Translations under genes and position numbers: made by a program
The notes under the pieces: generated by a model
What the model was told of the DNA's origin: nothing
What the model saw: the letters and a program-made list of their open reading frames with translations, nothing else
The model's database searches: none
Shown: positions 14,942 to 30,708 of the stretch, piece after piece
Numbering within the stretch: the stretch's first letter is position 1
Layout of the letters: the number at the start of each line of letters is the position of its first letter
Assembly (NCBI GenBank): GCA_902595855.1
Contig: CACJRY010000003.1
Span: 57,098-121,097 of the forward strand
DNA length: 64,000 nucleotides
Source: an uncultured Alphaproteobacteria bacterium
GTDB taxonomy: Bacteria; Pseudomonadota; Alphaproteobacteria; HIMB59; GCA-002718135
Direction: 5' to 3'

Positions 14942-14988
14942 AATTTCCTCTTTAATCAAAAAATTAAAATTTATAAGTAAATACTATC

Positions 14989-16422: not shown

Positions 16423-16432
16423 TCTCTTGCAA

Positions 16433-16462: not shown

Positions 16463-16490
16463 ATAAATTTAATTTAATCAAAATTTACAT

Positions 16491-17570
16491 ATGGCCGACA
16501 AAGAAAATACAATTAAAAATTTTAGTCAAACTTGGCCAATGCCAAACAAATTAAACCCAATAATAATTATTGGAACTGGAGGAATAGTTAAGGATGCTCA
16601 TCTTCCAGCTTATAAAAAAGCAGGTTTTGAAGTTCATGGTCTATATGATGTTGACTCAGAAAAAGCAAAAAACTTAGCAAAAGAATTTGGAATTACTAAT
16701 GTTTTCGACTCTCTTGAAGAAGCTTTTCAAAACAAAGATCATATTTTTGATTTAGCGCTTCCCCCAGCAAACTTATTAGAGGTAGTGGAAAAACTTCCTG
16801 ACAATATCTATGCTGTTTTTCAAAAACCGCTTGGTAGATCTTTAGAGGAGGGAAACGAAATAAGAAAAATTTGTCATCAAAAAAATATAAAAGCATGTAT
16901 GAATTTTCAGTTACGTTTCAGTCCAATTTCTCTTCCAGTATATGAGGCAATTAAACAAAATATTTTAGGTGAATTAGTAGAGCTTGAAGTTCATGTCAAT
17001 GTACACACTCCTTGGGAGTTATGGCCATTTCTAAAATCATTAGATAGAGTCGAAGTTCCATTGCACTCAATCCATTACATTGATTGGATACGTTCTGTTC
17101 TTGGAAATCCTCAGGGTGTTTACTGCCAGTCAGTAAAGCATCCTAATGTAAAAGAGTTAGCCGATTGCCGAACCAGTGCAATTTTTAATTATGGTAATCA
17201 AATTAGATGTTGTATGACTATTAATCATACACATAGCTTTGGAAGAAAAAACCAAGATGCATATATTCGTTTAGAGGGTACAAAAGGTGCAGCTAAAATG
17301 AAATTAGGTCTGTTATTAGATTATCCAACTGGAGAACCAGAAGAACTAGAAATAATAACTGAAGGAACTGATTGGATAAAATTTGATATTCAAGGCAAGT
17401 GGTTTCCAGATGCATTTATAGGCGTAATGGCAAATATGCAAAGATTTAAAAATGGTGAAGATTCTGAATTATTAACTTCAATTGATGACTCCATTCATAC
17501 TATGGCAGTTGTTGACTCATGTGGTATCTCTAGTCAATCAGGTGGATTAAAAATAGATTACGCTGATTAA
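16491..17570 (+). CDS. Gfo/Idh/MocA-family NAD(P) oxidoreductase (candidate sugar 1-dehydrogenase)
   Basis: 359 aa with N-terminal IIIIGTGGIVKDAHLPAY Rossmann fold. It is embedded between the SBP and permease genes. Confidence 0.75.
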   Translation: MADKENTIKNFSQTWPMPNKLNPIIIIGTGGIVKDAHLPAYKKAGFEVHGLYDVDSEKAKNLAKEFGITNVFDSLEEAFQNKDHIFDLALPPANLLEVVEKLPDNIYAVFQKPLGRSLEEGNEIRKICHQKNIKACMNFQLRFSPISLPVYEAIKQNILGELVELEVHVNVHTPWELWPFLKSLDRVEVPLHSIHYIDWIRSVLGNPQGVYCQSVKHPNVKELADCRTSAIFNYGNQIRCCMTINHTHSFGRKNQDAYIRLEGTKGAAKMKLGLLLDYPTGEPEELEIITEGTDWIKFDIQGKWFPDAFIGVMANMQRFKNGEDSELLTSIDDSIHTMAVVDSCGISSQSGGLKIDYAD

Positions 17571-17573
17571 TTG

Positions 17574-18464
17574 ATGGTTAGAAAAATTTTTAGAAGTCCA
17601 GTTATGTTAATCATGCCATCAATTTTGGCTATAGGTTTTGTAATTATAATTCCACTCATTTTTTCTTTCTATACAAGTTTTACATCATATAAACTCACAC
17701 GCCCTGATAGCCTTTTTAATTTTGTTGGATTGCGTAATTATGAAAGACTGATTGATAATGCAAAATTTTGGTATGCTTTTGGAAGAACTATTCTATTTTT
17801 AGCAGTTGTTCTTAACTTAGAATTATTATTTGGGCTGGGTATTGCGCTATTAATTAATAAAATTACTTGGGGGCAAAGAACCTTAAGAACAATTATGATG
17901 TTTCCAATGATGTTCTCACCAATCTTAGTAGGATTTCAGTGGAAATATATTTTTAATGATAACATTGGCTTATTAAATAATTTTTTATACTTGTTTGGTT
18001 ATGAGTCTGCCATTCCTTGGTTAATAGACAAATATCTTGCTATGGGATCTATTATGGTTGCAGAAATTTGGGCTAATACTTCAATTTTTGCTATTCTGCT
18101 ACTAGCAGGTCTATTAGGAATACCAAGAGATCCTGTTGAAGCTGCAAGAGTTGATGGTTGTAACAGTTGGCAAGTGTTTAAAAATATTACTTTACCATTT
18201 CTAATGCCATTTATTTTTATAGCTCTTACTATTAGATCATTAGATGTGGGAAGGGCTTATGATATTGTTCATATAATGACAGGCGGTGGTCCAGCAATGA
18301 GAACAGAGCTGCTTTGGACAATGATTGCTAGAATAGGATATAAAGATGCTAATATGGGTTTTGCAAATGCAATGTCTTATGTATCAATAATATTATCTAT
18401 TGCATTTACATATTATTTTTTTACAAAGTTAGTTGCGGCTAGAAGAGATTTGGGACAGCAATAA
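17574..18464 (+). CDS. CUT1-type ABC sugar transporter permease
   Basis: Multi-TM with EAA loop DPVEAARVDGCNSWQVFKNITLPFLMP. The ATG at 17574 follows the upstream stop by 3 nt. Confidence 0.85.
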   Translation: MVRKIFRSPVMLIMPSILAIGFVIIIPLIFSFYTSFTSYKLTRPDSLFNFVGLRNYERLIDNAKFWYAFGRTILFLAVVLNLELLFGLGIALLINKITWGQRTLRTIMMFPMMFSPILVGFQWKYIFNDNIGLLNNFLYLFGYESAIPWLIDKYLAMGSIMVAEIWANTSIFAILLLAGLLGIPRDPVEAARVDGCNSWQVFKNITLPFLMPFIFIALTIRSLDVGRAYDIVHIMTGGGPAMRTELLWTMIARIGYKDANMGFANAMSYVSIILSIAFTYYFFTKLVAARRDLGQQ

Positions 18465-19303
18465 TGAAACAAATAAAAAAAATAGGATTTTGGTTTTTGG
18501 TTCTTTTTCTTTTAATATTAATTTGTTTGCCTGGTATATGGATTTTTATCAGTGCTTTTCGTCCTAATCCAGAAATTTTAGCTAAGCCTGCTAACTGGAT
18601 TCCAGACAGATGGACACTCCATCAATTTACTCAAATGTTTAGTATTAATGGTTATGTATCTGTCCCTGCATTCAAGTACTTAATGAATTCAATAATAATT
18701 TCCTCTGTTAGCACAGTAATTGCTATTACTATAGGTATGATGGGTGGATATGCGTTTGCAAGATTTAATTTTAAAGGAAAAAATAAAATCTTTCTTAGTT
18801 TAATGTTAGCAAGAGCAGTTCCAGGAATATCACTAAGTTTGCCTCTATTTATTTTATTTGCTAAGCTTGGTATAATTAATACATCTTTTGGCGTAATCCT
18901 AGTTTATGTTGCAATGAATGTTCCTTTTACAATTTGGTTAACTGATGGTTTTTTTAGACAAATACCAAAAGAGATGTCTGAAGTTGCTAGAACAGATGGT
19001 TGCACAAGGTTCCAAGCGTTTTGGAATGTTGAACTACCTCTTGCCGGACCTGGTATTGGTGCTGCTGCAATATTTGCTTTTCTATTATCATGGAATGAAT
19101 ATGCATTAGCTTCTATCATAACTAGAACTGTGCATTCCAAAACTCTACCCATTGGTATGATGGATTACTTAGATGAGTTTACGATCAATTGGGCAGGTAT
19201 GTGTGCAATAGCAGTAGTAATGATCATTCCTGCTTTAATATTAACATTTATTGTTCAAAAACACTTGGTTTCTGGATTAACATTTGGAGGAGTAAAAGGG
19301 TAA
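18464..19303 (+). CDS. CUT1-type ABC sugar transporter permease
   Basis: 279 aa with EAA loop [27 protein letters not shown]. It overlaps the previous gene by 1 nt. Confidence 0.85.
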
Positions 19304-19304
19304 T

Positions 19305-20402
19305 ATGGCTAAGGTTGAATTAAAAAACTTAACAAAGAAATACGGTGACGTTGTCGCTGTTCAAAATATGGATTTAACAATTCCGCACAATGAATTTCTT
19401 GTGTTGGTTGGACCCTCAGGATGTGGAAAATCAACCACCTTGAGAATGATTGCAGGACTTGAAGAAATTTCTGGAGGAGAAATTTACATAGGTGATCAAA
19501 AAGTTAATGAAAAAGATCCTAAAGATCGAAATGTTTCGATGGTTTTTCAAAACTATGCTCTTTATCCCCACATGACAGTTGAAGAAAATTTAGGTTTTAG
19601 TCTAAAAATTGCAAAAGTTAATCCTGATGAAATTGAAACAAAAGTTAAAGATGCTGTAAGTATCTTAGGTTTGGAGGATTTAAGAAAAAGAAAACCTTCA
19701 CAACTTTCTGGAGGACAAAGACAAAGAGTTGCAATGGGTAGAGCTATTGTTCGCCGACCTGATGCTTTTTTATTTGATGAACCTCTTTCTAATTTAGATG
19801 CCAAACTTAGAACTCAGATGAGAACTGAAATAAAAAAACTTCATCAAAAACTTAAAACAACAGTCATATACGTAACACATGATCAGGTGGAAGCTATGAC
19901 TTTAGCAGATAGAATTATAATAATGAAAGATGGTTTTATTGAGCAAATTGGATCTCCAATTGAGGTTTTTAACAACCCTGTAAACGTATTTGTTGCGACT
20001 TTTATTGGTAGTCCACCAATGAATATTATTGCGTGTGAAATAAATAAAAGCAATGATCAGATAATGATTCAATTAGATAAAGATATTCATGTTCATTGCC
20101 CTGAAGATAAAATATCAAAACTTGCTAACTTAAAAAAAGTCATTGTTGGAATAAGAGCAGAAGATATTGTTCCAATAAAAAATATTTCTAATGAACAAAA
20201 TACATTATGGACTTTCAGTAAAGAAATTGATCTCGCTGAACCTCTTGGCACTGAAACGCAACTTTTTTTTAAATTACAAAACCAAGAAATAATAAGTCGT
20301 ATGTATAACCCTAGACCAGTTGATGTTGGAGAAAATATAAATTTTCAAATAGAAAAAAATAAAATTCATTTTTTTGATTATGAAACACAAAAAGCAATCT
20401 AA
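19305..20402 (+). CDS. ABC transporter ATP-binding protein, MalK/UgpC/MsmX type
   Basis: 365 aa with Walker [10 protein letters not shown], signature LSGGQRQR, Walker B FLFDEPLS and a C-terminal regulatory domain. Confidence 0.9.
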
Positions 20403-21195
20403 AAATTACAGCGCACCAGCTCTAGAAAAAGGATTAGATATTTTAGAACTGTTATCAAATTCTGCTGAAGGTCTTAGTCAAGCTGAAATTGCAGGTAAGT
20501 TAAATAAATCAGTAAATGAAATTTATAGAATGGTAACAACTTTAAGAAAAAGAGAGTATGTAGATTTTGATAATGAAAAAGAAGTTTATAGACTTTCTTT
20601 TAAAATTTTAAACATGACTTCAAAATTTGAACCAGTTAAAACTCTTACAACAAGAGCTATTCCTATAATGAAAGAAATTACTACAAAAGCAACCCAATCT
20701 GTTCATCTAGCTATTTATACAAAAGGTAAAATATTAATTATTGCTCAGGAAGATAGCCCTTCGTCTTTTAATTATCATGTTTCAGTTGGTGCAAGTTTTG
20801 ACTTGCTTGAAACATCATCTGGTAGAGTTATATTAACTTTCCAAAATGAAAAAGAAAGAAAAAGACGACTAGAGAGAAGAAAGTTTTATTCAAGGTTGGA
20901 GACAACTTCAAAAATATCAGTTTCTGAATTAAAAAAAATTGAAAAACTTTTTTCTAAAAATACAATGAAAAAAATTGAAAAAAATAAATATGAATTGGTA
21001 AAGAGTTTACAAATTAAAGGAGTAACAAATATCTCAGTTCCAATTTTTGATCATACTAATAATGCAATTGCGGCCCTTACAATTCCTTTTGTGGATAGAA
21101 TAATTACAAAAGATGAGCTAAGTTTAGAGAAGGTTAAAAAATTATTGATATACTCAGCAGAATTACTTTCAGCAGAAATGGGTTATAAAAATTAG
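20374..21195 (+). CDS. IclR-family transcriptional regulator
   Basis: 273 aa. The N-terminal winged [44 protein letters not shown] is typical of IclR/KdgR. The start (20374 or 20380) overlaps the ATPase gene. Confidence 0.8.
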
Positions 21196-21197: not shown

Positions 21198-21851
21198 ATG
21201 TCAGCAAATATTAATACAGCAAGATTATCCAAATGTTATAGTTCTGTAATTCATGACATCATGAGAGATGATGGTTATAATAATTTCACACTTCCACCTA
21301 ACATCAAACCCTGCAAAAATCACCATGTGCTCGCGGGACAAATTTTTACTATGGAAGGAAAAGTGAACAAATCTCTAAGTCATCACGAAACTCTTTTAGC
21401 TTGGACAGGCTTTTTATCAAAGGCTCCTAGTGATAAGGTAGTTATTTGTCAGCCACATAACAATGAGGTAGCTTTGATGGGTGAGTTATCTGCAGAAACA
21501 CTGCAACAAAAAGGTGTCAAAGGTTACATTGTTGATGGAGGAGCAAGAGATTTAGATTTTATATTAAAAATTGATTTTCCAGTTTGGAGTAGTTTTTATA
21601 CACCAAGAGATGTAGTTGGTTACTGGCATCCTACAAAATTTGAGCAACCAATTAAAATAGGTGATACAGTTATCAATAATAATGATTATGTTTTAGCAGA
21701 CATTGATGGAGTTGTAATTATTCCATCTAATATTATTGAGGATATTTTAATAAGAGCTGAAAAATTAATTAGTACAGAAAATTTAGTAAGAAAATCTATC
21801 CGTGAAGGCATGGATCCTCAAGAAGCATATCTCAAATATAGCGTTTTTTAA
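21198..21851 (+). CDS. RraA-like protein / class II pyruvate aldolase-oxaloacetate decarboxylase family
   Basis: 217 aa with blocks MGELSAETLQQKGVKGYIVDGGARD and ADIDGVVIIP, characteristic of the RraA / 4-hydroxy-4-methyl-2-oxoglutarate aldolase family. Confidence 0.75.
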   Translation: MSANINTARLSKCYSSVIHDIMRDDGYNNFTLPPNIKPCKNHHVLAGQIFTMEGKVNKSLSHHETLLAWTGFLSKAPSDKVVICQPHNNEVALMGELSAETLQQKGVKGYIVDGGARDLDFILKIDFPVWSSFYTPRDVVGYWHPTKFEQPIKIGDTVINNNDYVLADIDGVVIIPSNIIEDILIRAEKLISTENLVRKSIREGMDPQEAYLKYSVF

Positions 21852-22295
21852 TTATTTTTTTTCAACAAGCAATATATGTTCAGAATAGCAAACGCACTTA
21901 TCATTTTGATTTAATATTTCACAAGCTTCATTAACTTGACCGTATTGAGGTCTTTTAGGGTCATCCTTTTTTTCTTTAATGGTAACTTTTGTGTGTATAG
22001 TATCTCCAATGAAAACGGGATTAGGAAAACGAAGTCTTTCAAATCCATATGTGAAAGCTCTTTTATTAACAACTGATGCAGTAAGAGCAATTCCAATTGA
22101 AAATGTACAACTAAATTGTGCAATTCTCTGACCAAAAGGAGTTGTTTTAGCAAATTCAGCATCAACGTGGTGAGGGTAGAAGTCTCCTGAATGCATTGCA
22201 TGCATGACGATATCTGTTTCAGTAATTGTTCTTGCTGCAGTAATTCTTTCTGCCCCTACTTCGTAATCTTCAAAAAATTGCTCAATCTCTACCAT
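21852..22295 (-). CDS. MaoC-like (R)-specific enoyl-CoA hydratase (single hot-dog)
   Basis: 147 aa. The hydratase-2 motif is retained: SGDFYPHHVDAEFA, with Asp and His present. Its stop codon abuts the RraA stop (TAATTA). Confidence 0.75.
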   Translation of the reverse strand: MVEIEQFFEDYEVGAERITAARTITETDIVMHAMHSGDFYPHHVDAEFAKTTPFGQRIAQFSCTFSIGIALTASVVNKRAFTYGFERLRFPNPVFIGDTIHTKVTIKEKKDDPKRPQYGQVNEACEILNQNDKCVCYSEHILLVEKK

Positions 22296-22311
22296 GTTTC
22301 CTCATTATTTT

Positions 22312-22325
22312 TATTGAATTCAATA
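22312..22325. promoter_or_regulatory. perfect 14-bp palindrome TATTGAATTCAATA in the 62-nt divergent spacer between the two MaoC genes (candidate operator)
   Basis: Read directly from the sequence. It is the only sizeable symmetric element in the spacer that must hold both promoters, and an IclR regulator gene lies 1.1 kb upstream. Confidence 0.35.
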
Positions 22326-22357
22326 TTTTAAGATAATAGAGTAGCATAATTTTAAAT

Positions 22358-22921
22358 ATGAATAAAGATTTTAAATATAAAAATACTATTGGAATTGAAT
22401 CAACTTTTCCAAAAGATATGCCTCAAGAACATAGCAAATTACCTGTGTGGAATTCAGAAAATTGGTTTTATGAAGATGTGATTGTTGATCATAAGATAAG
22501 ATCTCTTAGAAGGACAATTTCTGAAGGCGAAGCTATGCAGTTTAATTGTATGGTACTTGATATGCACCCCTATGTTGGTGATGAACATTTTGCTAAAAAT
22601 GAAGGTCTATTTAAAAAAAGACTAGTGGCAGGAGCAATGGTTTTTTCTTATGGCTTGGGTTTGGTAGCGACTAATTGTGTTAACTCATTTAGTTATGGGT
22701 ATGATCGCTTAAGATTTATTAAACCAGTTTTTATTGGTGATACGATATACACAATTAGAACAAATATGGAAAAAAAACCTAAATATGAAAAAATGGGCTT
22801 GGTTAGAACTAGTTATGAAGTTTTTAAAGGTGATGGCGAGATTGTACTTTACTGTGAACACTTACACTCTGTTTTGTATAAAAAGCCTGAGGATTTTAAA
22901 GACCAATATGAAAAAAAATGA
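22358..22921 (+). CDS. MaoC-like hot-dog protein with a degenerate hydratase motif
   Basis: 187 aa. The C-terminal two thirds align by eye with the 147-aa paralogue ([22 protein letters not shown] versus [22 protein letters not shown]). The motif region reads [13 protein letters not shown], with Val at the expected catalytic His position. Confidence 0.65.
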
Positions 22922-24048
22922 TCCAACTCAAAGGCATGACATGGGATCATTCAAGAGGTTATGACCCAATGATTGCTACAAGTGATTTTTTTTCAAAAAA
23001 ACATAATAATAAAGTTCAAATAAACTGGGAAAAAAGATCATTACAAGCATTTGCAGACAGACCAATAGATCAAATGGCAGATGAATATGATTTAATGGTC
23101 ATTGATTATCCGCATGTTGGGGAAGTGTCAGCTAAAGGTTTATTGCAAAAATTTGATGTTGATGAATACCAAAGTGAATTAAATTTATTGAAAGAACAGT
23201 CTGTAGGACTCTCTCATCAAAGCTATAATATTGATGGTCATCAATGGGCATTAGCAATTGATGCGGCAACTCAGGTATGTTGTTTTAGAAAAGATTTAAT
23301 ACCCTTTTTACCACAATCTTGGAACGAACTTTCAAATTTAGCTCAACAAAATAAAGTTCTTTGGCCTTTAAAGCCAGTACATGCAATAAGTAGCTTTTAT
23401 AGTATTTACAATAATATTACTGATGAGTTTAATCCTAAAGACAAAAATTTTATAAATAAAGAATTTGGAATTAAGACATTAGAAATGATGAAACATATAA
23501 CAGAACATTTAATTAGTGATTGTTTCATAATGGATCCAATCAAAACTGCAGAAATTTTATCATCTACTGATGATTTTTATTATTCACCTTACACATATGG
23601 ATTTTCAAATTACTCCCGAGAAAATTTCAGAGAAAATATTTTAACATATGGTAATGTTATGGACTTATCAAATAAAGGCCCTAAAGGAACCCATTTAGGC
23701 GGAACTGGAATTGCAATATCTAATAAAAGTTATCATAAAGATCTTGCATTAGAATATAGTTATTGGATTGCAGGGGCTGATTGTCAAAAATCAATTTTCT
23801 ATAAAAGTGGGGGGCAGCCAGGTAATTCTATTGCATGGGAAAATCAGCAAATAAATGCTGAATGTAATGGATTTTTTACTAATACAAGATTAACGTTAAA
23901 TCAAGCCTGGATCAGACCAAGACATAATGGGTATATGAAGTTTCAAGATGAAAGTGGAGAGATTATTAATGAATACCTTCAATCAAATACTAATGAAGAC
24001 ATTATCATTGATAAGTTAAAAATTATGTATGCAGAAAGTTTTGAATAA
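22918..24048 (+). CDS. cytoplasmic (signal-peptide-less) family-1 solute-binding-protein-fold protein, function unknown
   Basis: 376 aa. The N-terminus [25 protein letters not shown] has no hydrophobic leader. SBP_bac_1-like blocks are present: [25 protein letters not shown] and [30 protein letters not shown] overlap with the upstream gene. Confidence 0.55.
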
Positions 24049-24052
24049 TAAG

Positions 24053-25201
24053 ATGTCTAGACCTTTGGAAGGATTAACAGTTCTAGAATTTAGTCAATTT
24101 TTGTCAGGACCATATGCCGGTCTACGATTATCTGATTTAGGAGCAAGAGTTATTAAAATTGAGAGACCTGAAGTTGGAGATCTATGCAGGACACTTTACA
24201 TTAGTGATACTGATTTAGAAGGGGATAGCACTTTATTTCATGCAATTAATCGTAATAAGGAGAGTTTTGCTGCAAATTTAAAGGACCCTAAAGATTTGGA
24301 TTTAGTTAAAAAACTAATAACCAAAGCTGATATTATTACTCAAAATTTTAGACCAGGCGTTATCGAAAAGATTGGCCTTGATTATGAAAGTGTAAAAAAA
24401 ATAAATTCAAAAATTGTTTATGGCTCAATCTCTGGTTATGGTTCTGAGGGACCTTGGAAAGATTTACCAGGACAAGATCTGCTTGCTCAATCAAGAACAG
24501 GTTTAGTTTGGTTAAATGGAAATGGTGGTGAAGCACCCACACCAATGGGTTTAGCTGTCGCTGATATGCTTGCCGGACATTCTCTTGTTGAAGGAATTTT
24601 GTCAGCTGTAATTAAAAGATTTAGGACTAATGAAGGATCTCATATTGAAACAAGTTTAGTCGAGGCACTGCTAGATTTTCAATTTGAAGTTTTAACTACA
24701 TATTTTAATGATGGAAATAGAAAACCAGTAAGAAGCAAATATAATAATGCTCATGCTTATTTATCCGCTCCTTACGGAATTTATAAAACAAAAGATGGTT
24801 TTGTTGCAATTGCGATGACACCACTGCCAAAACTTGGTGAATTATTAGATCTTGAATTTTTAAAAAATATGCATGATCAAAAAAAATGGTTCACTGAAAG
24901 AGATGAAATAAAGAAAAAGATTGGAGATTGGGTGAACGCACAAACTACATCCCACATATTAAGTATTCTTGAGCCTGCTGATATTTGGTGTGCGGAAGTT
25001 TTAGATTGGGAAAAAATGTTAAAACATGAAGGTTTTAAAATTTTAGATATGACCCAGCGAATTATAGGAGTTGATGGATTGAATATTGAAACACTAAGAT
25101 GCCCAATAAGAGTTAATGGAAAAATATTTAAATCAGAGAAAGCTGCTCCAAAGGTGGGACAAGATAATGAAAAAATAATAGCAGAAATGAATATTGTATG
25201 A
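24053..25201 (+). CDS. family III (CaiB/BaiF) CoA-transferase
   Basis: The N-terminal block PLEGLTVLEFSQFLSGPYAGLRLSDLGARVIKIERP is a hallmark of the family. The ATG at 24053 is preferred to the track start at 24029, which overlaps the upstream gene. Confidence 0.85.
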   Translation: MSRPLEGLTVLEFSQFLSGPYAGLRLSDLGARVIKIERPEVGDLCRTLYISDTDLEGDSTLFHAINRNKESFAANLKDPKDLDLVKKLITKADIITQNFRPGVIEKIGLDYESVKKINSKIVYGSISGYGSEGPWKDLPGQDLLAQSRTGLVWLNGNGGEAPTPMGLAVADMLAGHSLVEGILSAVIKRFRTNEGSHIETSLVEALLDFQFEVLTTYFNDGNRKPVRSKYNNAHAYLSAPYGIYKTKDGFVAIAMTPLPKLGELLDLEFLKNMHDQKKWFTERDEIKKKIGDWVNAQTTSHILSILEPADIWCAEVLDWEKMLKHEGFKILDMTQRIIGVDGLNIETLRCPIRVNGKIFKSEKAAPKVGQDNEKIIAEMNIV

Positions 25202-26304
25202 AGATTACTGATATAGAAATACGCGCATGTCGTCATAGGGATCCTGTAATGAAAGACTCAGAGATGCGTGATGGAAAAAAATCAGATTTAGAATTTTTAG
25301 TAGTAACTTTTCACACAAATGAAGGTTTAAGCACATCTACTTTTGGTTTTGCAGGAAGAGGAGCATCGATGGCAGGAGAAATAGCTAATAGTATTTTCAA
25401 ACCATTTTTTATTGGTAGAGATCCTTTATATAGGGAAAAGCATTGGCATGAATACCGAATGGCAGATCGATGGTGGAATCATGCTCCGATATATAGTTAT
25501 GGACCTTTTGATATTAATTGTTGGGTTTTATCATCTCTACAAGCAAGTCAGCCGTTATATAAATATTTAGGCGCGTATAGAGATCAAGTTCCAATTTATG
25601 GAAGTTCTCTTGTTTATAAAACACCAGAGCAATATGCAAAAGAGGCGAAAGAATATCAAAATAAAGGTTTTAATGCTTATAAAATTCATCCTCCTGGAAC
25701 ATACGATTTAGATTTAGAAATTCATAAAGCTGTAAGATCAGCTGTGGGTAATGATTTTAAATTAATGAGTGACCCTGTAGCTCCATATACTTTTGAGCAA
25801 GCTTTGCGTTTAGGAAGAGAATTAGAAAAATTAAATTATTACTGGTATGAAGAACCATTATTTGATGAAAACTTTCATAACCTTAGAGAATTAACAAGAA
25901 TATTAGATATCCCAATTATTGGTACTGAAGTAATTGCAAAACATCCCTACAGTGTTGCAGAATGTATTTCGACTAGAGTAGTTGATATGGTTAGAGCAGA
26001 TGTATCTTGGAGTGGTGGTATCACCGCAACAATGAAAACTGCTCACTTAGCTGAAAGTTTTGGTGTTCAGTGTGAAATTCATACAGCAATTTATCATCCT
26101 CTAGAATTGGTAAATTTACATTGTTGTGCTGCAATAAAAAATTCAGAATTTTTTGAGGTTCTTGTTCCTTACGATTATTTCGATTTTGGGTTAAAGGAAA
26201 AAATAAAAGTTGAAAATGGTTCTGCACAATTGCCTTCTAAACCCGGTCTTGGTATTGAATTAGATTGGGATTTTATTGATAACACTACTTTCAAAAAATT
26301 TTAA
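25198..26304 (+). CDS. enolase-superfamily protein, specificity unknown (atypical K-x-H)
   Basis: 368 aa with blocks YKIHPPG (K-I-H where FucD has K-V-K), LMSDP, WYEEP, GTE, DMVRAD and CEIHT. It overlaps the CoA-transferase gene by 4 nt. Confidence 0.75.
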   Translation: MKITDIEIRACRHRDPVMKDSEMRDGKKSDLEFLVVTFHTNEGLSTSTFGFAGRGASMAGEIANSIFKPFFIGRDPLYREKHWHEYRMADRWWNHAPIYSYGPFDINCWVLSSLQASQPLYKYLGAYRDQVPIYGSSLVYKTPEQYAKEAKEYQNKGFNAYKIHPPGTYDLDLEIHKAVRSAVGNDFKLMSDPVAPYTFEQALRLGRELEKLNYYWYEEPLFDENFHNLRELTRILDIPIIGTEVIAKHPYSVAECISTRVVDMVRADVSWSGGITATMKTAHLAESFGVQCEIHTAIYHPLELVNLHCCAAIKNSEFFEVLVPYDYFDFGLKEKIKVENGSAQLPSKPGLGIELDWDFIDNTTFKKF

Positions 26305-26306
26305 CA

Positions 26307-27608
26307 ATGACTAAAATTTTAAGATTTACAGTTGAGGATATTAGATTTCCAACATCAAAAGATCTTACAGGCTCTGATGCAATTCATACTGATCCAGATT
26401 ATTCCGCTACATATGTTACTGCTTATACTGATGACTCAAATCTGAAAGGTTATGGAATAGCTTTTACAATAGGAAAAGGTAATGACATTGTTGCAGAGTG
26501 TATTAAATATTTTTTTCCAACTTTTGAAAATATGAATTTGGATGACATAGAAAATGATATTGGAAAACTCTGGTATAAATGCGTTGACCATAGTCAACTT
26601 AGATGGCTTGGTCCTGAAAAGGGAGCAGTCCATATGGCGGTCGCAGCTATATTTAATTGTCTATGGGATTTAATTGCCAAGAAAAATAAAAAACCACTTT
26701 GGAAGTTTGTAGCAGAAAGTGATCCAGAAAAAATACTTAGTTGGTTAACTTTCAAGTATATTGAAGATGTTTTAACCCCGGATCAGGCTTTAAAAATTTT
26801 AAAAGATAGTCAAAATGATAAAAAAGCAAGAATAGATAAAATTTTAAAAGAAGGTTATCCTTCTTACACTACAGCAGCTGGTTGGCTTGGTTACTCAGAT
26901 GAAAAAATAGTAAAACTATGTAAAAAATATATTTCTATGGGTTGGAAACATTTCAAAGTTAAAGTTGGTTTGGATCTAGAGGCCGATGTAAAAAGACTTG
27001 AATTAATAAGAAAGACAATAGGTGATGACTGTCATATTATGGTTGACGCTAACCAACAATGGAGTGTGGAACAATCAATAAAGCATATTAATGCTTATAA
27101 AAAATTTAATTTATTATTTGTTGAAGAGCCTACAAGTCCAGATGACGTACTAGGTTTTGTAAAAATAAAAGCATCAGTAGGAAATGTTAAGCTTGCAACC
27201 GGAGAAGCTTGTGGTGGCAGAGTTATGTTTAAGCAATTTTTAGAGTCAGGATCTATGAATGTGTGCCAAATTGATAGTTGTCGCATTGGCAGCATTAATG
27301 AAATTTTAACTGTAATGCTAATGGCACATAAATTTAAAGTACCAATCTTCCCTCATGCTGGAGGAGTTGGTTTATGTGAGTATGTCCAACATTTATGTAT
27401 GATTGATTATGTACTTATAAATGGAGATAAAAATAATAAATTTGTTGAATATTCTGATCAACTACATGAGCATTTCATATATCCATGTAACTTAAAGGAT
27501 GGTAATTACATGCCACCTTTAGATCATGGATATTCTATTGAAATGAAAGAAAACTCTGTTAAGGAGTTCTCTTATCCTCATGGATTTTATTGGCAGAGTA
27601 ATAAATGA
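26307..27608 (+). CDS. fucD: L-fuconate dehydratase
   Basis: 433 aa, co-linear by eye with Xanthomonas campestris FucD. Shared blocks: IRFPTSKDLTGSDAIHTDPDYSATYV, SQLRWLGPEKGAVHMA, GYPSYTTAAGWLGYSDEK, FKVKVG, VDANQQW, VEEPTSPDDVLG, FPHAGGVGLCEYVQHL. Confidence 0.9.
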   Translation: MTKILRFTVEDIRFPTSKDLTGSDAIHTDPDYSATYVTAYTDDSNLKGYGIAFTIGKGNDIVAECIKYFFPTFENMNLDDIENDIGKLWYKCVDHSQLRWLGPEKGAVHMAVAAIFNCLWDLIAKKNKKPLWKFVAESDPEKILSWLTFKYIEDVLTPDQALKILKDSQNDKKARIDKILKEGYPSYTTAAGWLGYSDEKIVKLCKKYISMGWKHFKVKVGLDLEADVKRLELIRKTIGDDCHIMVDANQQWSVEQSIKHINAYKKFNLLFVEEPTSPDDVLGFVKIKASVGNVKLATGEACGGRVMFKQFLESGSMNVCQIDSCRIGSINEILTVMLMAHKFKVPIFPHAGGVGLCEYVQHLCMIDYVLINGDKNNKFVEYSDQLHEHFIYPCNLKDGNYMPPLDHGYSIEMKENSVKEFSYPHGFYWQSNK

Positions 27609-28342
27609 GACTAACAAATAAAAATATTATAGTAACTGCTGCAGCTCAAGGTATTGGCAGGGCTACTGCAATAGCTTTTGCAAATGAAGGTGCAAATGTC
27701 ATTGCAACAGATATAAATGAAGATAAGCTTAAAGAAATTTCAAAAGAAAATAAAAATATTCAAATGCAAAAACTTGATGCAACTAGCAAAACTGAGGTTG
27801 AGGATTTTTGCTCGAATATAAATGAAATTGACATATTATTTCATGCTGTGGGCTTTGTTCACCATGGTAATATAATGGATTGTGATACTGAGGAATTTTA
27901 TAGATCAGTAAATGTAAATATTTACTCTGCTTATTTAATGACTCATAATTTATTACCCAAGATGCTGAAAAATAAAAAAGGAAACATCATTATAGTCTCT
28001 TCTGCGGCATCAAGCGTAAAAGGTGTACCAAATAGATTTATCTATGGAACAACAAAAGCGGCACTCAATGGGTTTGTAAAAGCTCTAGCCGCAGATTATG
28101 TTGGTCAGGGGATAAGATGTAACGCTATTTTGCCTGGTACAGTTGAAACACCTTCTTGGGAAGGGAGAGTGCAAATGGCTGATGATCCAAAAAAAGCTAG
28201 AGAAGATTTTATAGCAAGACAGGCAATGGGCCGTCTTGCTCAACCAAGTGAGATTGCATCAATGGCACTTTATTTAGCAAGTGATGAATCTGATTTTGTG
28301 ACTGGAACACTTAATTTAATTGATGGAGGATGGACTTTATAA
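27605..28342 (+). CDS. short-chain dehydrogenase, 2-keto-3-deoxy-L-fuconate/rhamnonate 4-dehydrogenase-like
   Basis: 245 aa classical SDR with TAAAQGIGRA and YGTTKAAL (YxxxK). Its position directly after fucD matches the published fuconate operon logic. Confidence 0.7.
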   Translation: MRLTNKNIIVTAAAQGIGRATAIAFANEGANVIATDINEDKLKEISKENKNIQMQKLDATSKTEVEDFCSNINEIDILFHAVGFVHHGNIMDCDTEEFYRSVNVNIYSAYLMTHNLLPKMLKNKKGNIIIVSSAASSVKGVPNRFIYGTTKAALNGFVKALAADYVGQGIRCNAILPGTVETPSWEGRVQMADDPKKAREDFIARQAMGRLAQPSEIASMALYLASDESDFVTGTLNLIDGGWTL

Positions 28343-29190
28343 TGAAAACACTAAGATATAGAATTGGTAATGAGGTTAAGCCAGGAATTTTAGATTCTGA
28401 TGAAAACATACTTGATGCTTCCAGTTTGGTTTCTGATTGGGATAATGAAAATGTAACAACAGATAAGTTGAATGAATTAAAAAATAGTGATTTGAGTTCT
28501 CTCCCAAAAGTAGATAAAATTGATAGTATAGCTCCTTGTGTATGTAAAAAAAGTGTTGGAAAATTTATTTGCATAGGTCTAAATTATTCTGATCATGCAG
28601 AGGAAACTGGAATGGAAGTTCCTCCTGAGCCAATTATTTTTTTTAAAGCTACGAGTGCTATTATTGGACCTAACGATAATGTAATCATTCCAAAAAATTC
28701 TAAAAAATCAGATTGGGAAGTTGAGTTAGGAATTGTAATTGGAAAAGAAGCTAAATATATTTCTGAAGACCAATCACAAGATCATATAGCAGGTTATTGT
28801 GTTGTGAATGATTTAAGTGAGAGAGCTTTTCAATTAGAACATTCTGGACAATGGGTAAAAGGAAAATCTTGTGATACTTTCGGACCTATAGGTCCATATT
28901 TAGTAACTAAAGATGAAGTTTCTGATCCTCAAAATTTATCAATGTGGTTAGAAGTTAATGGAAAAAGGATGCAGGATGGTTCAACCAAAACAATGGTTTA
29001 TGGTGTTAATTTTTTAGTTAGTTATTTAAGTCATTTTATGTCTTTACAGCCTGGTGATATTATTTCGACAGGAACACCACCAGGAGTTGGTATGGGTTTA
29101 AAACCACAGACATTTTTAAAACCTGGTGATGAAATGAAGCTTGGCATTGAAGGATTGGGTACTCAAACTCAAAAAACAATATCTGCATAA
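28342..29190 (+). CDS. fumarylacetoacetate-hydrolase-family protein, 2,4-diketo-3-deoxy-L-fuconate/rhamnonate hydrolase-like
   Basis: FAH-family blocks GLNYSDHAEE, DWEVELGIVIGK and GDIISTGTPPGVG. The ATG at 28342 overlaps the SDR stop (TAATG); the track start at 28330 adds 4 aa. Confidence 0.7.
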   Translation: MKTLRYRIGNEVKPGILDSDENILDASSLVSDWDNENVTTDKLNELKNSDLSSLPKVDKIDSIAPCVCKKSVGKFICIGLNYSDHAEETGMEVPPEPIIFFKATSAIIGPNDNVIIPKNSKKSDWEVELGIVIGKEAKYISEDQSQDHIAGYCVVNDLSERAFQLEHSGQWVKGKSCDTFGPIGPYLVTKDEVSDPQNLSMWLEVNGKRMQDGSTKTMVYGVNFLVSYLSHFMSLQPGDIISTGTPPGVGMGLKPQTFLKPGDEMKLGIEGLGTQTQKTISA

Positions 29191-30344
29191 TGTTTGGTGG
29201 AATAGAAAATTGTCATAACGTTAAAGATTTTAGAAAATTAGCTAAAAAAAAATTACCAAGTCCCATTTTTCATTACATTGATGGCGCGGCTGATGATGAG
29301 ATTACTTATAAAAGAAATACAGATTCTTTTGACTCATGCGATTTAGTTCCTAATGTTTTATCTGGAGTAGATAAAATTGACATGTCTACAACAGTTATGG
29401 GACAAAAAATTGATATACCTTTGTATTGTGCTCCAACTGCTCTTCAGCGATTATTTCATTATGAGGGTGAAATCGGTGTTGCTAAAGCGGCTGAAAAATA
29501 TGGCACCATGTTTGGCATTTCCTCTTTAGGTACAGCGAGTATTGAAGAAATATCAAATTTAGTATCAACACCAAAATTATTTCAATTATATGTTCATAAG
29601 GATGAGGGTCTAAACAAAGATCTAATTGATAGATGTAAAAACTCAAATTTTGAAGCTATGGCAGTAACAGTAGATACAGCTGTTGGAGGTAATAGAGAAA
29701 GAGATCTTAAAACAGGTTTTACAATACCAATGAAACTTTCTTTAAGTAGTGCTATTAGTTTTGCCACACACCCATCATGGGCCTTTAATTATTTTACAAA
29801 ACCTAAATGGGAATTAAGCAATTTAAAAAATCATATTGCAGCAGGAACAAGTGTAATGACAAGCATAGGTGATTATTTTACTCAGATGTTAAATAATTCT
29901 CTTGATTGGAAAGGAGTTGAAAAAATTAATAAAGAATGGGGCAAACAATTTGCTATTAAAGGAATTATGTCTGTAGAGGATGCAAAAAAAGCAGTTGATG
30001 TTGGAGCAACTGCAGTAATGGTTTCAAATCATGGAGGAAGGCAACTTGATGGATCAAGATCACCATTCGACCAACTTGCCGAAATAGTTGATGCTGTTGG
30101 TGATAAAATTGATGTTATTTGTGAGGGAGGAATTCGAAGAGGTACACACGTTTTAAAAGCTTTATCACTTGGAGCGAAAGCCTGTTCAGGAGGGAGAATG
30201 TATCTTTATGCATTGGCTGCCGGAGGACAAAAGGGAGTTGAAAAAACTTTATTTAATCTTAAAAATGAAATTGAAAGAGATATGAAATTAATGGGCGTTT
30301 CTTCAATTGATCAATTAACGCGAAAAAATTTAAAGTTTAGATAA
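29190..30344 (+). CDS. lldD: FMN-dependent alpha-hydroxy-acid dehydrogenase, L-lactate dehydrogenase-like
   Basis: 384 aa with the family block VSNHGGRQLDG. TAATG overlap with the hydrolase gene. L-lactate is the expected product of the upstream hydrolase. Confidence 0.7.
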   Translation: MFGGIENCHNVKDFRKLAKKKLPSPIFHYIDGAADDEITYKRNTDSFDSCDLVPNVLSGVDKIDMSTTVMGQKIDIPLYCAPTALQRLFHYEGEIGVAKAAEKYGTMFGISSLGTASIEEISNLVSTPKLFQLYVHKDEGLNKDLIDRCKNSNFEAMAVTVDTAVGGNRERDLKTGFTIPMKLSLSSAISFATHPSWAFNYFTKPKWELSNLKNHIAAGTSVMTSIGDYFTQMLNNSLDWKGVEKINKEWGKQFAIKGIMSVEDAKKAVDVGATAVMVSNHGGRQLDGSRSPFDQLAEIVDAVGDKIDVICEGGIRRGTHVLKALSLGAKACSGGRMYLYALAAGGQKGVEKTLFNLKNEIERDMKLMGVSSIDQLTRKNLKFR

Positions 30345-30387: not shown

Positions 30388-30708
30388 ATGAATTTAGAAA
30401 TAGAGCCAGTACATATTGGTCAGGAAGATGACATTGATGTTGGAAGTGTAGAAAATTTTGAACATGAGGAAATAGATTATGCTATTTTTCGCTTAGAGTC
30501 TGGCTTCTTTGCAACTCAAGGGCACTGCAATTGTGCAGACCAAGCCTTTTTAAGTGAAGCTAATGTTGAGGGGGAAGAGCTTGAGTGCGCTAGTTGTGGA
30601 AATACATTTAGTATAGTATCTGGAGATCCCATAAGTGATCCTGAATTACTAGCATTAAAAATTTTTGATATATATGAAGAGGATGGAGACATTTTTTTAA
30701 ATCTCTAA
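30388..30708 (+). CDS. small Rieske-fold-like protein with four Cys in place of the 2Cys/2His ligands
   Basis: 106 aa. The pattern is C47-N-C49-x17-C67-A-S-C70, spaced like the Rieske motif C-x-H-x15-17-C-x-x-H. Flanking sequence (YAIFRLESGFFATQGHC ... IFDIYEEDGDIFLNL) resembles Rieske-type ferredoxins. Confidence 0.5.
   Translation: MNLEIEPVHIGQEDDIDVGSVENFEHEEIDYAIFRLESGFFATQGHCNCADQAFLSEANVEGEELECASCGNTFSIVSGDPISDPELLALKIFDIYEEDGDIFLNL

Follow-up and report, generated by a model that had tools for sequence, protein, structure and literature searches.

A conserved gene unit encoding two MaoC proteins, a CoA-transferase and a leaderless solute-binding-fold protein in sugar-catabolic clusters

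The locus lies in a 64,000-nucleotide stretch of a contig (CACJRY010000003.1) from an uncultured marine alphaproteobacterium of the HIMB59 lineage, hereafter the window. On its plus strand, a gene for a MaoC paralogue (MaoC187, 22358-22921; Pfam MaoC_dehydratas, 9.8e-13) is followed by those for a leaderless solute-binding-fold protein (SBPcyt, 22918-24048; SBP_bac_8, 3.6e-07), a family III (CaiB/BaiF) CoA-transferase (CoAT, 24053-25201; CoA_transf_3, 4e-93, covering 1-366 of 366 profile positions) and an enolase-superfamily member of the mandelate-racemase subgroup (ENS_KxH, 25198-26304; MR_MLE_C). Packed behind them, with start and stop codons that overlap or nearly abut, are genes for canonical L-fuconate dehydratase (FucD, 26307-27608; MR_MLE_C), a short-chain dehydrogenase (SDR, 27605-28342; adh_short_C2, 1.7e-58), a FAH-family hydrolase (FAH, 28342-29190; FAA_hydrolase, 1e-71) and an LldD-like FMN-dependent enzyme of the L-lactate dehydrogenase type (LldD, 29190-30344; FMN_dh, 4e-128). 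As originally predicted, the genes from 22358 to fucD form an unbroken chain, and every intergenic gap from 22358 to 30344 is at most 4 nt. Read off the sequence, ATGA overlaps join MaoC187 to SBPcyt (22918-22921), CoAT to ENS_KxH (25198-25201) and FucD to SDR (27605-27608), TAATG joins SDR to FAH at 28342 and FAH to LldD at 29190, and gaps of 4 nt (24049-24052) and 2 nt (26305-26306) separate SBPcyt from CoAT and ENS_KxH from FucD. CoAT has a second possible start at 24029; we favour 24053 because homologues measure 381-382 aa. Likewise, 28342 is the more likely start of FAH than 28330, as its homologues have 282 aa. Terminator-like structures between 14500 and 32000 showed no excess (7 against 7.1 expected from shuffles).

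A second MaoC gene (MaoC147, 21852-22295, minus strand; MaoC_dehydratas, 6.8e-25) diverges from this operon across a 62-nt spacer (22296-22357), a candidate IclR operator/promoter region. The predicted perfect 14-bp palindrome in this spacer is present (TATTGAATTCAATA, 22312-22325). However, it is complete only in the two closest relatives (L004 and L008), the remaining SAR11-like genomes retain the left half-site TATTGAAT alone, and the window holds 18 such palindromes compared with 10 +/- 3.5 in shuffles. Poorly conserved, it carries little evidential weight; such palindromes are frequent in the AT-rich window.

Upstream on the plus strand, a CUT1 ABC transporter (15058-20402; Pfam) comprises a solute-binding protein (15058-16422), permeases (17571-19303) and an ATPase (19305-20402). 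An oxidoreductase gene of the Gfo/Idh/MocA type (16491-17570; Pfam), presumably for a sugar 1-dehydrogenase, is embedded in it. An IclR-family regulator (20374-21195; IclR_C, HTH_IclR) comes next. The adjoining RraA-like gene (21198-21851, plus strand; Pfam RraA-like, 1.6e-25), whose stop codon abuts that of MaoC147, was missing from the earlier interpretation. It encodes a putative class II 4-hydroxy-2-oxoacid (KDF) aldolase, with NCBIfam matches to CHA/HMG aldolases that fall under the cut-off. On the minus strand, 14615-14959 encodes a RhaM-type mutarotase, 13436-14611 another enolase-superfamily member and 12477-13439 a protein with an NAD-dependent epimerase/dehydratase fold, all assigned by Pfam, PDB searches and synteny in two other loci (L001 and L003). 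We read the region from 12.5 to 30.3 kb as a single oxidative catabolic island for a 6-deoxy-hexose of the L-fucose type. FucD, with its K-V-K motif, matches the X. campestris FucD structures 2HNE/2HXT/1YEY (4e-138); it also matches PDB 4IP4 (5.7e-149). We infer from the gene order FucD-SDR-FAH, which known fucose clusters share, that SDR is a candidate 2-keto-3-deoxy-L-fuconate 4-dehydrogenase, and FAH, at 378 bits against NCBIfam NF053535 (cut-off 500), is a candidate 2,4-diketo-3-deoxy-L-fuconate/rhamnonate hydrolase.

MaoC147 is a single hot-dog protein of the (R)-hydratase type that matches PDB 4FFU from S. meliloti (5.5e-56) and, within the double hot-dog hydratases 8HGN and 4E3E, aligns to their N-terminal half. 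Its G-D-x-x-P-H-H-x-D motif is intact and invariant among 55 orthologues, all 55 with the Asp/His dyad. MaoC187, a hot-dog paralogue with an N-terminal extension, aligns to the C-terminal half of these two enzymes and carries the altered motif D-x-H-P-Y-V. Here Val replaces the catalytic His, as first proposed by eye; the HMMER alignment to 4FFU agrees, and the replacement is family-wide. As D-x-H-P-Y-V is invariant in 64 orthologues, the altered site is under selection. The two copies do not both hold an intact dyad: MaoC147 keeps it and MaoC187 never does, in line with the predicted catalytic and non-catalytic pair, although a non-catalytic role for MaoC187 sits less easily with a motif under selection. 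By their PDB matches, the MaoC proteins resemble mesaconyl-CoA and beta-methylmalyl-CoA hydratases.

SBPcyt has neither a possible upstream start nor a hydrophobic N-terminus. Its AF2 model (pLDDT 95.1) superimposes on sugar-binding proteins at a Foldseek TM of ∼0.8 with 12-18% identity, so that sequence and model together indicate a solute-binding fold of the MalE/CUT1 type in a cytoplasmic protein. The family comprises 1586 representatives at 50% clustering, of ∼375-390 aa, whose alignment starts at residue 1 and contains 24 invariant residues, among them Trp, His, Arg and Asp. As distant homologues have enolase-superfamily, UxuA or SDR neighbours but no CoA-transferase beside them (L089, L096, L093), SBPcyt may also work independently of CoA. 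CoAT scores under the cut-off of every NCBIfam equivalog; in the PDB it matches 4ED9, formyl-CoA transferase and SUGCT best, and the catalytic Asp of GLAxxDMxAG is kept in 77/77 sequences.

Relatives of SBPcyt are present in at least 599 genomes. MaoC147, MaoC187, SBPcyt and CoAT travel with the transporter, dehydrogenase, mutarotase and IclR regulator in Alphaproteobacteria and, sporadically, in genomes of Vibrio, Phycisphaerae, Verrucomicrobia, Chloroflexota and Actinomycetes; thiolases near the module were seen in one Vibrio flank only. Synteny was counted in 45 non-SAR11-like loci with flanks of 5 kb or more to either side. CoAT lay within 43 of these, mostly directly beside SBPcyt, MaoC187 within 36 and MaoC147 within 30, together with ABC genes (34-35), IclR (34), the Gfo/Idh/MocA dehydrogenase (31), a rhaM-type mutarotase (28) and the RraA-like gene (16). 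Adjacency, counted with crude ORF boundaries in 44 loci whose flanks reach 9 kb or more, SAR11-like loci included, placed CoAT in 43/44, at most 60 nt from SBPcyt in 32 and in both gene orders. Across orders, the module is accompanied by ABC transporter and Gfo/Idh/MocA orthologues of 50-74% identity. In the S. meliloti ml47 pSymB record, IS elements part CoAT-SBPcyt from the remaining cluster, and MaoC187 was not found in the ∼45 kb examined. Together, these data show that MaoC147, MaoC187, SBPcyt and CoAT are an evolutionarily conserved unit with the transporter, dehydrogenase, mutarotase and IclR as constant partners. They support the prediction of five genes as one selected unit, the orthologues being clearly not scattered and unlinked; the enolase was present in only 10/45 loci. 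The module is not an additional branch of fucD: canonical FucD and LldD occurred in 0/45 non-SAR11-like loci within 10 kb, and the single-operon fusion with FucD, SDR, FAH and LldD is confined to the SAR11-like lineage.

Minimal operons in Devosia, Kaistia and Martelella contain ABC genes and, next to them, IclR, an Amidohydro_2 lactonase, mutarotase, the Gfo/Idh/MocA dehydrogenase, MaoC187, CoAT, SBPcyt and MaoC147, with no enolase-superfamily or UxaA dehydratase within 10 kb, which places the module immediately behind the upper pathway. None of the cluster types examined showed a CoA ligase, CoA-ester lyase or thioesterase conserved alongside the module; that no lyase is visible had already been noted. 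This points to catalytic cycling of CoA and makes a CoA-shuttle (de)hydratase like CaiB/CaiD, with an aldonate or related hydroxy acid as substrate and SBPcyt as ligand-binding partner, the most economical reading, which we hold tentatively and with somewhat less than even confidence. Also in its favour are the conserved catalytic residues of CoAT and MaoC147, the alignment of the two MaoC proteins to opposite halves of double hot-dog hydratases, the sugar-binding fold of SBPcyt, and paralogous sugar clusters in which the trio is repeated with a crotonase instead of MaoC (L086, L087 and L090, L090 having two copies of each). Family III CoA-transferases are established partners of dehydratases in the CoA cycles of CaiB/CaiD, FldA/FldBC and HadA/HadBC. 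CoAT would transfer CoA from succinyl-CoA, acetyl-CoA or the product thioester to a hydroxy acid of the upper pathway, most likely the aldonate that the Gfo/Idh/MocA dehydrogenase produces, alone or together with a lactonase; L-fuconate is a candidate, as is any stereoisomer or derivative of it that the metal-dependent dehydratases refuse. SBPcyt, the proposed cytoplasmic partner, would capture the sugar acid or lactone for CoAT. The MaoC pair, which would amount to a double hot-dog hydratase divided over two proteins, one site canonical and the other remodelled, would remove the 3-hydroxyl through thioester-enolate chemistry. CoAT would then hand CoA onward, freeing a 2-keto-3-deoxy acid for the SDR/FAH/LldD route or, in other genomes, for an RraA-type aldolase. 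Counting against this reading, a 2-oxoacyl-CoA would be a chemically unusual product. The distant SBPcyt homologues that lack a CoA-transferase neighbour, the divided S. meliloti cluster and the substrates of characterised CoAT relatives also weigh against it. Furthermore, conventional acid-sugar dehydratases (FucD, an SM_b21107-like enolase member, a UxaA-like protein or ENS_KxH) are encoded in most clusters, that of the window among them, so that an aldonate-dehydratase role would seem redundant unless stereochemistry or substitution differs.

That redundancy would disappear if CoA-ester activation served to invert C2 and/or C3, converting a non-cognate aldonate into a stereoisomer fit for FucD or other dehydratases, by racemase-type chemistry of the family III fold, of which alpha-methylacyl-CoA racemase is an example, or by loss and re-addition of water at the two different MaoC sites. 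The two differing, strongly conserved MaoC motifs would suit such an epimerase or isomerase, as would the multi-sugar clusters with several paralogous trios. Family III includes racemases, and CoAT matches MCR at 2e-27, yet it is far closer to true transferases (172-174 bits) than to racemases (99 bits). Also against it, the minimal operons lack a nearby downstream dehydratase, and FucD itself is reported to epimerise C2. We consider this alternative unlikely.

A small downstream or side-product acid, such as L-lactate from the FAH hydrolase, a lactaldehyde-derived acid or a pyruvate-derived hydroxy-dicarboxylate, could instead be the substrate, feeding central metabolism or saving thioester energy. 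The module often lies directly beside SDR and FAH (in the window, L024, L082, L092 and type D clusters), CoAT is similar to dicarboxylate and short-acid transferases, and the hydratase matches of the MaoC proteins would fit. However, FAH (present in 2/45 loci) and SDR (10/45) are missing from many module clusters, a lyase for finishing a citramalyl- or malyl-CoA-type route is absent, and by established chemistry a MaoC hydratase is unable to dehydrate a 2-hydroxyacyl-CoA such as lactyl-CoA, which leaves this substrate class improbable.

We regard as very unlikely the original proposal that ENS_KxH makes the acid activated by CoAT, as a distinct branch added to the L-fuconate genes. The K-I-H of this enolase, against K-V-K in FucD, was borne out: its orthologues share Y-K-[ILT]-H-P-P-G and conserve the D/E/E metal ligands, Asp and His. 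It is no plain FucD duplicate, with 19% identity to FucD and best PDB matches (1RVK/4HCD/4MMW, ∼4e-48) that all read K-L-H. Although this complete catalytic set and the overlap with CoAT in the window favour such a branch, ENS_KxH is an unlikely supplier of the CoAT substrate, as in the 10 loci where it travels with the module it follows the RraA-like gene rather than CoAT, and the module also occurs in operons without any enolase-superfamily gene. Finally, chance neighbours, with MaoC and CoAT from fatty-acid/PHA metabolism and SBPcyt a decayed transporter gene minus its signal peptide, would suit the generic public annotations ('MaoC/PaaZ C-terminal domain protein', 'extracellular solute-binding protein') but are scarcely credible, being contradicted by synteny held across orders and phyla, the uniform leaderless length and invariant residues of SBPcyt, and no conserved fatty-acid genes nearby.

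In agreement with the original prediction, literature searches gave no CoA-dependent route for L-fucose or L-rhamnose, and we found no published description of this CoA-transferase/MaoC/SBPcyt module. Its recurrence in hundreds of genomes points to an unrecognised CoA-dependent step in oxidative sugar breakdown. The nearest characterised relatives of CoAT act on dicarboxylates, oxalate and formate, with aldonates not among them.

An ORF map of the window reproduced the gene coordinates of the original prediction. Profile searches identified genes for a 147-aa MaoC hot-dog protein (MaoC147, 21852-22295, minus strand), its 187-aa MaoC paralogue (MaoC187, 22358-22921), an SBP_bac_8 protein too short at its N terminus for a signal peptide (SBPcyt, 22918-24048) and a full-length family III CoA-transferase (CoAT, 24053-25201), together referred to as the CoA module. 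These are followed by two members of the enolase superfamily (ENS), an atypical K-I-H protein (ENS_KxH, 25198-26304) and the L-fuconate dehydratase FucD (26307-27608). Downstream of FucD lie SDR (27605-28342), FAH hydrolase (28342-29190) and FMN-dependent lactate-dehydrogenase-type (LldD, 29190-30344) genes. As predicted, the junctions read from the sequence are tight at all boundaries from 22358 to 30344, with ATGA or TAATG overlaps or gaps of 2-4 nt, and terminator-like hairpins in the operon region were not more frequent than in shuffles. From these two observations, we infer that the 22358-30344 genes very likely form one transcript.

The 62-nt spacer between the divergent MaoC genes does carry the predicted perfect palindrome, TATTGAATTCAATA, but its weight as an operator did not hold up: perfect 14-mer palindromes are common in this 31% G+C window (18 observed, 10 +/- 3.5 in shuffles) and the full palindrome was kept in the two nearest relatives only. 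We therefore rate it a weak operator candidate and reject it as strong evidence for a conserved operator. The MaoC147-MaoC187 spacers of five Rhodobacterales relatives (loci L015, L017, L022, L028 and L033) share a different conserved motif, TTTCATATATACAAAA...TTTGACATATGAAAA, in which the inverted repeat TTTCATAT/ATATGAAA encloses a TTGACA box; it is a better operator candidate than the palindrome of the window. At the other end of MaoC147, its stop codon touches that of the RraA-like gene (21198-21851, plus strand) with zero spacing (21849-21854), so transcription of the transporter operon must enter MaoC147 antisense unless it is terminated inside this gene. Within the region of the CUT1 ABC transporter (15058-20402), a G+C-rich hairpin, CTACTCCTCATGAAAGTGAGGGGTAG (16423-16470), lies directly 3' of the periplasmic SBP gene and 5' of the Gfo/Idh/MocA oxidoreductase gene (GFO, 16491-17570). 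It may act as an attenuator inside the operon, or stabilise mRNA and so raise expression of the SBP over that of the downstream genes.

MaoC147 matches the S. meliloti protein of PDB 4FFU (5.5e-56, about 60% identity) and has the features of hydratase 2, or (R)-specific enoyl-CoA hydratase (Pfam 6.8e-25, SGDFYPHHVD): G-D-x-x-P-H-H-x-D was present in all 55 orthologues collected, with the Asp and the second His invariant. In MaoC187, the position of the catalytic His, the fifth after the Asp, is Val in all 64 sequences, as it also is in the alignment to 4FFU. The Asp is retained, a His is conserved at +2, and the motif D-x-H-P-Y-V is invariant across the 64 orthologues. This pattern points to a site that is remodelled, not decayed, and MaoC187 may thus not be inert. 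When aligned to the double hot-dog beta-methylmalyl-/mesaconyl-CoA hydratases (8HGN, 4E3E), MaoC147 matches the N-terminal half and MaoC187 the C-terminal half, which is how a split two-domain hydratase would look. Within 10 kb, 6 of 44 loci hold MaoC147 only and 10 hold MaoC187 only.

The AF2 model of SBPcyt (pLDDT 95) has the SBP fold, with TM scores of 0.75-0.85 to MalE, SmoF and other CUT1 SBPs; the similarity to sugar SBPs is structural (TM about 0.8) at 12-18% identity. The N terminus begins at the first beta-strand and an upstream start is impossible, leaving neither signal peptide nor lipobox, and the gene neighbour is the CoA-transferase, not permeases. The family comprises about 1600 clusters at 50% identity, all about 375-390 aa and aligned from residue 1, with 24 invariant residues, Trp, His, Arg, Asp and Tyr among them. 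A recent duplication of the window's periplasmic SBPs was ruled out by hhalign probabilities of only 16-21% for both. Apparent Rosetta-stone fusions of SBPcyt to CoAT or MaoC were likewise rejected, as the long ORFs in high-GC loci were over-extended and in other frames, and family lengths are uniform. Across relative loci, the SBPcyt/CoAT pair occurs in both gene orders, mostly with 4-nt overlaps, and this near-obligate adjacency supports, rather than proves, a joint function. Distant paralogues of SBPcyt (about 30% identity) in other sugar clusters again neighbour a CoA-transferase, with a crotonase-type hydratase (L086, L087). SBPcyt, CoAT and crotonase each occur twice on the metagenomic contig L090, in the company of genes for a lactonase, a mutarotase, an ENS member, a DHDPS aldolase, KDG kinase and KDPG aldolase. 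A minority of distant paralogues (L089, L093, L096) adjoin ENS, UxuA or SDR genes without a transferase; in L089 (8001-10483) and L096, members of about 30% identity overlap UxuA-like/ENS genes by 4 nt, with no CoA-transferase nearby. Because of these members, the SBPcyt family may also act in acid-sugar metabolism independently of CoA. As this cytoplasmic SBP-fold family is routinely mis-annotated as an extracellular transporter component, transporter counts are inflated in genome-based predictions.

The CoA-transferase covers positions 1-366 of 366 of the Pfam model CoA_transf_3 (CaiB/BaiF, 4e-93). In this family, a catalytic Asp forms an anhydride intermediate; here it corresponds to the Asp of GLAVADMLAG, which lines up with the conserved Asp of 4ED9 and is kept in 77 of 77 sequences. 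Its best solved relatives in a PDB search are dicarboxylate, oxalate and formate transferases, and it scored below the curated NCBIfam cut-off of every named equivalog: succinate-glutarate (212 bits, cut-off 750), succinyl-CoA:mesaconate (Mct; 178.7, cut-off 700), oxalate (169, cut-off 522), formyl-CoA (155, cut-off 504) and carnitine (92, cut-off 413).

FucD matches the X. campestris L-fuconate dehydratase structures 2HNE/2HXT/1YEY (4e-138 over residues 3-430) and has K-x-K as 'FKVKV'. ENS_KxH has K-I-H instead, is 19% identical to the window's FucD and returned no FucD structure among its 60 best PDB matches; in line with the original prediction, it is no plain FucD duplicate. The mandelate racemase subgroup carries metal-ligand carboxylates on strands 3-5, an Asp on strand 6, a His on strand 7 and a Lys on strand 2; in the alignment of ENS_KxH, D192, E218, E244, D268, H295 and K162 are invariant, and they are conserved in 21 orthologues, all 21 of which have Y-K-[ILT]-H-P-P-G. 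The best structural relative is the A. tumefaciens 'isomerase/lactonizing enzyme' (1RVK/4HCD/4HCH/4HCL/4MMW; about 4e-48, a full-length match of about 168 bits), which shares the strand-2 K-x-H (K-L-H in 1RVK/4HCD) and the D/E/E/H set; we found no assigned function for 1RVK in the literature. Within 17 kb, this streamlined genome holds four distinct ENS genes (10203-11381, 13436-14611, 25198-26304 and 26307-27608), of which only FucD has an assignable substrate; the one at 13436-14611 has its closest relative in a Zobellia 'galactonate dehydratase' (5OLC, 3e-36).

Around these genes, the window holds upstream malate synthase G, SufE, and galT- and galE-like genes (1374-10085), a cog3618-type Amidohydro_2 gene (6100-6948) whose product is 35-45% identical to the lactonase-like proteins encoded within related clusters, and, on the minus strand, another CUT1 ABC system (6957-10085). 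The Gfo/Idh/MocA protein had no informative solved relative in the PDB (best E-value 4e-08). Directly 3' of LldD, a 106-aa acidic protein with a weak Rieske-domain match (30388-30708) is kept at the same position in all SAR11-like relatives (63-89% identity) and is missing from other lineages. Farther downstream, a 614-aa TPP enzyme, IolD-like by size and domains, and a Peripla_BP_4 sugar ABC system (31795-37164), then a PhyH-family dioxygenase (37199-38047), probably form a separate inositol or sugar locus.

Relatives of SBPcyt were sought by a degenerate-pattern scan of one genome per species, which found them in at least 599 genomes, and the best 80 loci were taken. Neighbourhoods of 10 kb on each side, in which 'absent' means absent nearby, were scored with a custom ORF caller, which over-extends some ORFs in high-GC loci, and BLASTP thresholds. 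The closest loci come from SAR11-like or AEGEAN-169-like single-cell genomes with the gene order of the window. Among 45 non-SAR11-like loci flanked by 5 kb or more on either side, the CoA-transferase was present in 43 and MaoC187 in 36, followed by the orthologous ABC transporter (34-35; 50-74% identity), IclR (34; 20374-21195 in the window), Gfo/Idh/MocA (31), MaoC147 (30) and the RhaM-type mutarotase (rhaM, 28; 14615-14959 in the window). Less frequent were an ENS gene like SM_b21107 (17/45), the RraA-like gene (16/45), ENS_KxH and SDR (10/45 each) and FAH (2/45); canonical FucD and LldD were found in none. Besides the window (type C), three architectures recur. Type A (Sinorhizobium, Rhizobium, Shinella, Mesorhizobium) reads [MaoC187]-CoAT-SBPcyt / IclR / ABC-ENS-rhaM-GFO-MaoC147-SDR-FAH. 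In type B (Rhodobacterales, Hoeflea, Bauldia), IclR, GFO and MaoC147 are divergent from MaoC187-SBPcyt-CoAT-ABC-ENS-rhaM-RraA-ENS_KxH-split UxaA. Type E (Devosia, Kaistia, Martelella) reads ABC / IclR-Amidohydro_2-rhaM-GFO-MaoC187-CoAT-SBPcyt-MaoC147, and a dehydratase of the ENS or UxaA type is absent within 10 kb. The extra ENS gene 3' of the ABC ATPase in most non-SAR11-like clusters (types A and B; for example, L085 10015-11127) is closest to 3,6-anhydro-L-galactonate cycloisomerase (5XD7, 3.5e-73), not FucD, and the window has no orthologue of it. A Phycisphaerae locus combines the module with an Amidohydro_2 lactonase, an aldolase of the DHDPS type and a gene for a microcompartment shell. 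What stays with the module from cluster to cluster is the upper pathway: uptake, mutarotation, oxidation at C1 and, in some cases, hydrolysis of the lactone. Conventional dehydratases vary, and so does the lower pathway, which consists of SDR with FAH or of an aldolase of the RraA or DHDPS type. Across the 80 genome loci, plasmid records and metagenome contigs, neither a CoA ligase nor a CoA-ester lyase nor a thioesterase is conserved in any cluster type; thiolases occurred only in one Vibrio flank.

A transferase and a hydratase without a thioester consumer are the signature of CoA-shuttle dehydratases such as CaiB/CaiD, a signature shared by FldA and HadA, which are family III transferases as well. 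ENS dehydratases work through a metal-stabilised enediolate, to which a thioester enolate formed on a hot-dog or crotonase fold is the classical chemical alternative. This signature, the upper-pathway companions and the lack of ligase, lyase and thioesterase suggest a model where the module acts as a CoA shuttle on an aldonate or its kin. It would load an aldonate, or a closely related hydroxy acid, onto CoA; the CoA-bound acid would then be dehydrated, and possibly epimerised, and a 2-keto-3-deoxy acid would be returned to SDR/FAH/LldD or an aldolase route, with SBPcyt as a soluble ligand-binding partner of the transferase. We hold this mechanism as a whole only tentatively, with somewhat less than even confidence, and are considerably more confident that the module genes work together as a single functional, CoA-dependent unit within this sugar pathway. 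We consider it doubtful, if conceivable, that the oxidative sugar pathways of many bacteria handle aldonates by such an unrecognised thioester route, in which SBPcyt, as a cytoplasmic descendant of a transporter binding protein, would capture the sugar acid or lactone and present it to the CoA-transferase, and MaoC or crotonase proteins would perform the alpha-proton chemistry of the metal-using ENS, IlvD and UxaA dehydratases. Only under this broader reading would the module define a new class of system for dehydrating or epimerising aldonates, and SBPcyt would be the first protein of SBP fold known to serve as a soluble partner of a CoA-transferase.

The main difficulty for the shuttle model is that FucD, UxaA and other ENS dehydratases make it redundant in most clusters. 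This redundancy would be removed if the module takes a stereoisomer or derivative, or if it works as an epimerase system. The latter explanation, attractive because redundancy with conventional dehydratases disappears, seems to us unlikely. Similarly improbable is that the module acts on a small downstream acid, which would fit the transferase's relatives and the frequent SDR/FAH adjacency; a MaoC enzyme, however, cannot dehydrate lactyl-CoA, and FAH is missing from most clusters. Itaconate-type and lactyl-CoA-type routes were set aside for the missing lyase and on chemical grounds. The original prediction that ENS_KxH supplies the substrate of the CoA-transferase fits poorly with its presence in just 10 of 45 loci and has, in our view, little chance of being right. 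Chance adjacency is practically negligible, being excluded by the conserved synteny (CoA-transferase in 43 and MaoC187 in 36 of 45 loci), which also confirms that the module genes are linked, not scattered.

6-Deoxy sugars, L-fucose among them, make up a major part of the polysaccharides of algae and of the dissolved organic carbon in the sea, and streamlined SAR11-like or AEGEAN-169-like carriers retain few dispensable genes. Four tightly conserved genes without an assigned step inside an otherwise 'complete' textbook pathway, recurring in at least 599 genomes, imply that the annotated pathway is incomplete or its substrate range unrecognised. As carriers such as S. meliloti, Devosia, Mameliella, Maritalea and Vibrio nigripulchritudo are cultured, the question is directly testable.

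The non-phosphorylative L-fucose route (FucD, KDF dehydrogenase, diketo-hydrolase) was reportedly described for X. campestris by Yew in 2006 and for Burkholderia by Hobbs in 2013. The window shares with it FucD (4e-138 to 2HNE), candidate SDR and FAH hydrolase genes, LldD, mutarotase and the cog3618-type Amidohydro_2; the SDR matches at domain level only, and the FAH hydrolase scores 378 bits against the 500-bit cut-off of the rhamnonate-hydrolase model. FucD, the candidate SDR and FAH hydrolase, and LldD would be ordinary members of this route. However, the published route has no CoA-dependent step, the window's dehydrogenase is of the Gfo/Idh/MocA type rather than SDR or AKR, and the four CoA-module genes, ENS_KxH and the RraA-like gene match no assigned step. 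A conserved 'fucose operon' of AEGEAN-169 'Ca. Indicimonas' has been noted, in a paper whose main text makes no mention of the CoA genes (PMC11366302). In the literature, we found no description of a CoA-dependent fucose, rhamnose or aldonate route, or of sugar-acid clusters with CoA-transferase and SBP; the GapMind paper with its supplements and the RB-TnSeq preprint do not mention the module genes.

The orthologous pSymB cluster of S. meliloti ml47 (U8C43_12055-12180), annotated as L-fuconate dehydratase, FAH, SDR, MaoC, Gfo/Idh/MocA, L-rhamnose mutarotase, ENS, ABC, IclR and amidohydrolase, shares FucD, FAH, SDR, MaoC147 (60% identity; 4FFU), Gfo/Idh/MocA, RhaM, ABC, IclR, Amidohydro_2 and CoAT-SBPcyt with the window. 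It differs in an extra SM_b21107-like ENS (best PDB match 3,6-anhydro-L-galactonate cycloisomerase) and in its CoAT-SBPcyt pair, which is set apart from the fucose-type cluster by IS110 and ISRm17 elements and ~13 kb of unrelated genes and adjoins traA (L084/L085, CP140955.1 972000-1016526); MaoC187, ENS_KxH and RraA were not found in this region. The corresponding transporter of strain 1021, SM_b21103-6, reportedly carries an annotation as importer of L-fucose that derives from RB-TnSeq (Fitness Browser, GapMind). A second high-affinity SBP for L-fucose, SMc02774, is encoded on the S. meliloti chromosome (PMC3454389).

Like the itaconate/mesaconate CoA pathways (Ict/Ich/Ccl; Mct/Mch), in which they act on polar short acyl-CoAs, the module combines a family III transferase with a MaoC-type hydratase. 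It lies, however, in sugar rather than C5-dicarboxylate catabolism and lacks a citramalyl- or malyl-CoA lyase: an HpcH/CitE-type lyase was found in no cluster, and RipB/Ich scored 50.8 bits against an NCBIfam cut-off of 340. In heteromeric HadAB/HadBC of M. tuberculosis and MFE-2 hydratase 2, a double hot-dog protein, one subunit or half bears the Asp/His dyad and the other, without the His, shapes the substrate pocket. The MaoC pair shows the same split in its motifs, but MaoC187 carries its own remodelled motif, and the MaoC147 orthologue 4FFU was crystallised alone; the heteromer proposed here from the genes is putative.

In CaiB/CaiD of E. coli and FldA/FldBC and HadA/HadBC of clostridia, CoA is recycled between product and substrate, so that overall a free hydroxy acid is dehydrated. 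As in these systems, a family III CoA-transferase gene lies beside a (de)hydratase gene, without ligase, lyase or thioesterase. In contrast, the hydratase of the window is a MaoC hot-dog pair, not a crotonase (CaiD) or radical dehydratase, although paralogous sugar clusters use crotonase; the context is sugar catabolism with an obligate-looking cytoplasmic SBP-fold protein, and the CoA cycle, deduced from genes, is putative. The module has real prospects of being more than a variant if SBPcyt is a substrate-presenting subunit or an enzyme. It departs from every named family in a defining feature, having no lyase, sub-threshold equivalog scores, a hydratase fold unlike CaiD and an extra cytoplasmic SBP. 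Overall, the CoA module follows the logic of CaiB/CaiD, its subunit design is like that of HadAB or the double hot-dog hydratases, and its enzyme families are those of Ict/Ich or Mct/Mch.
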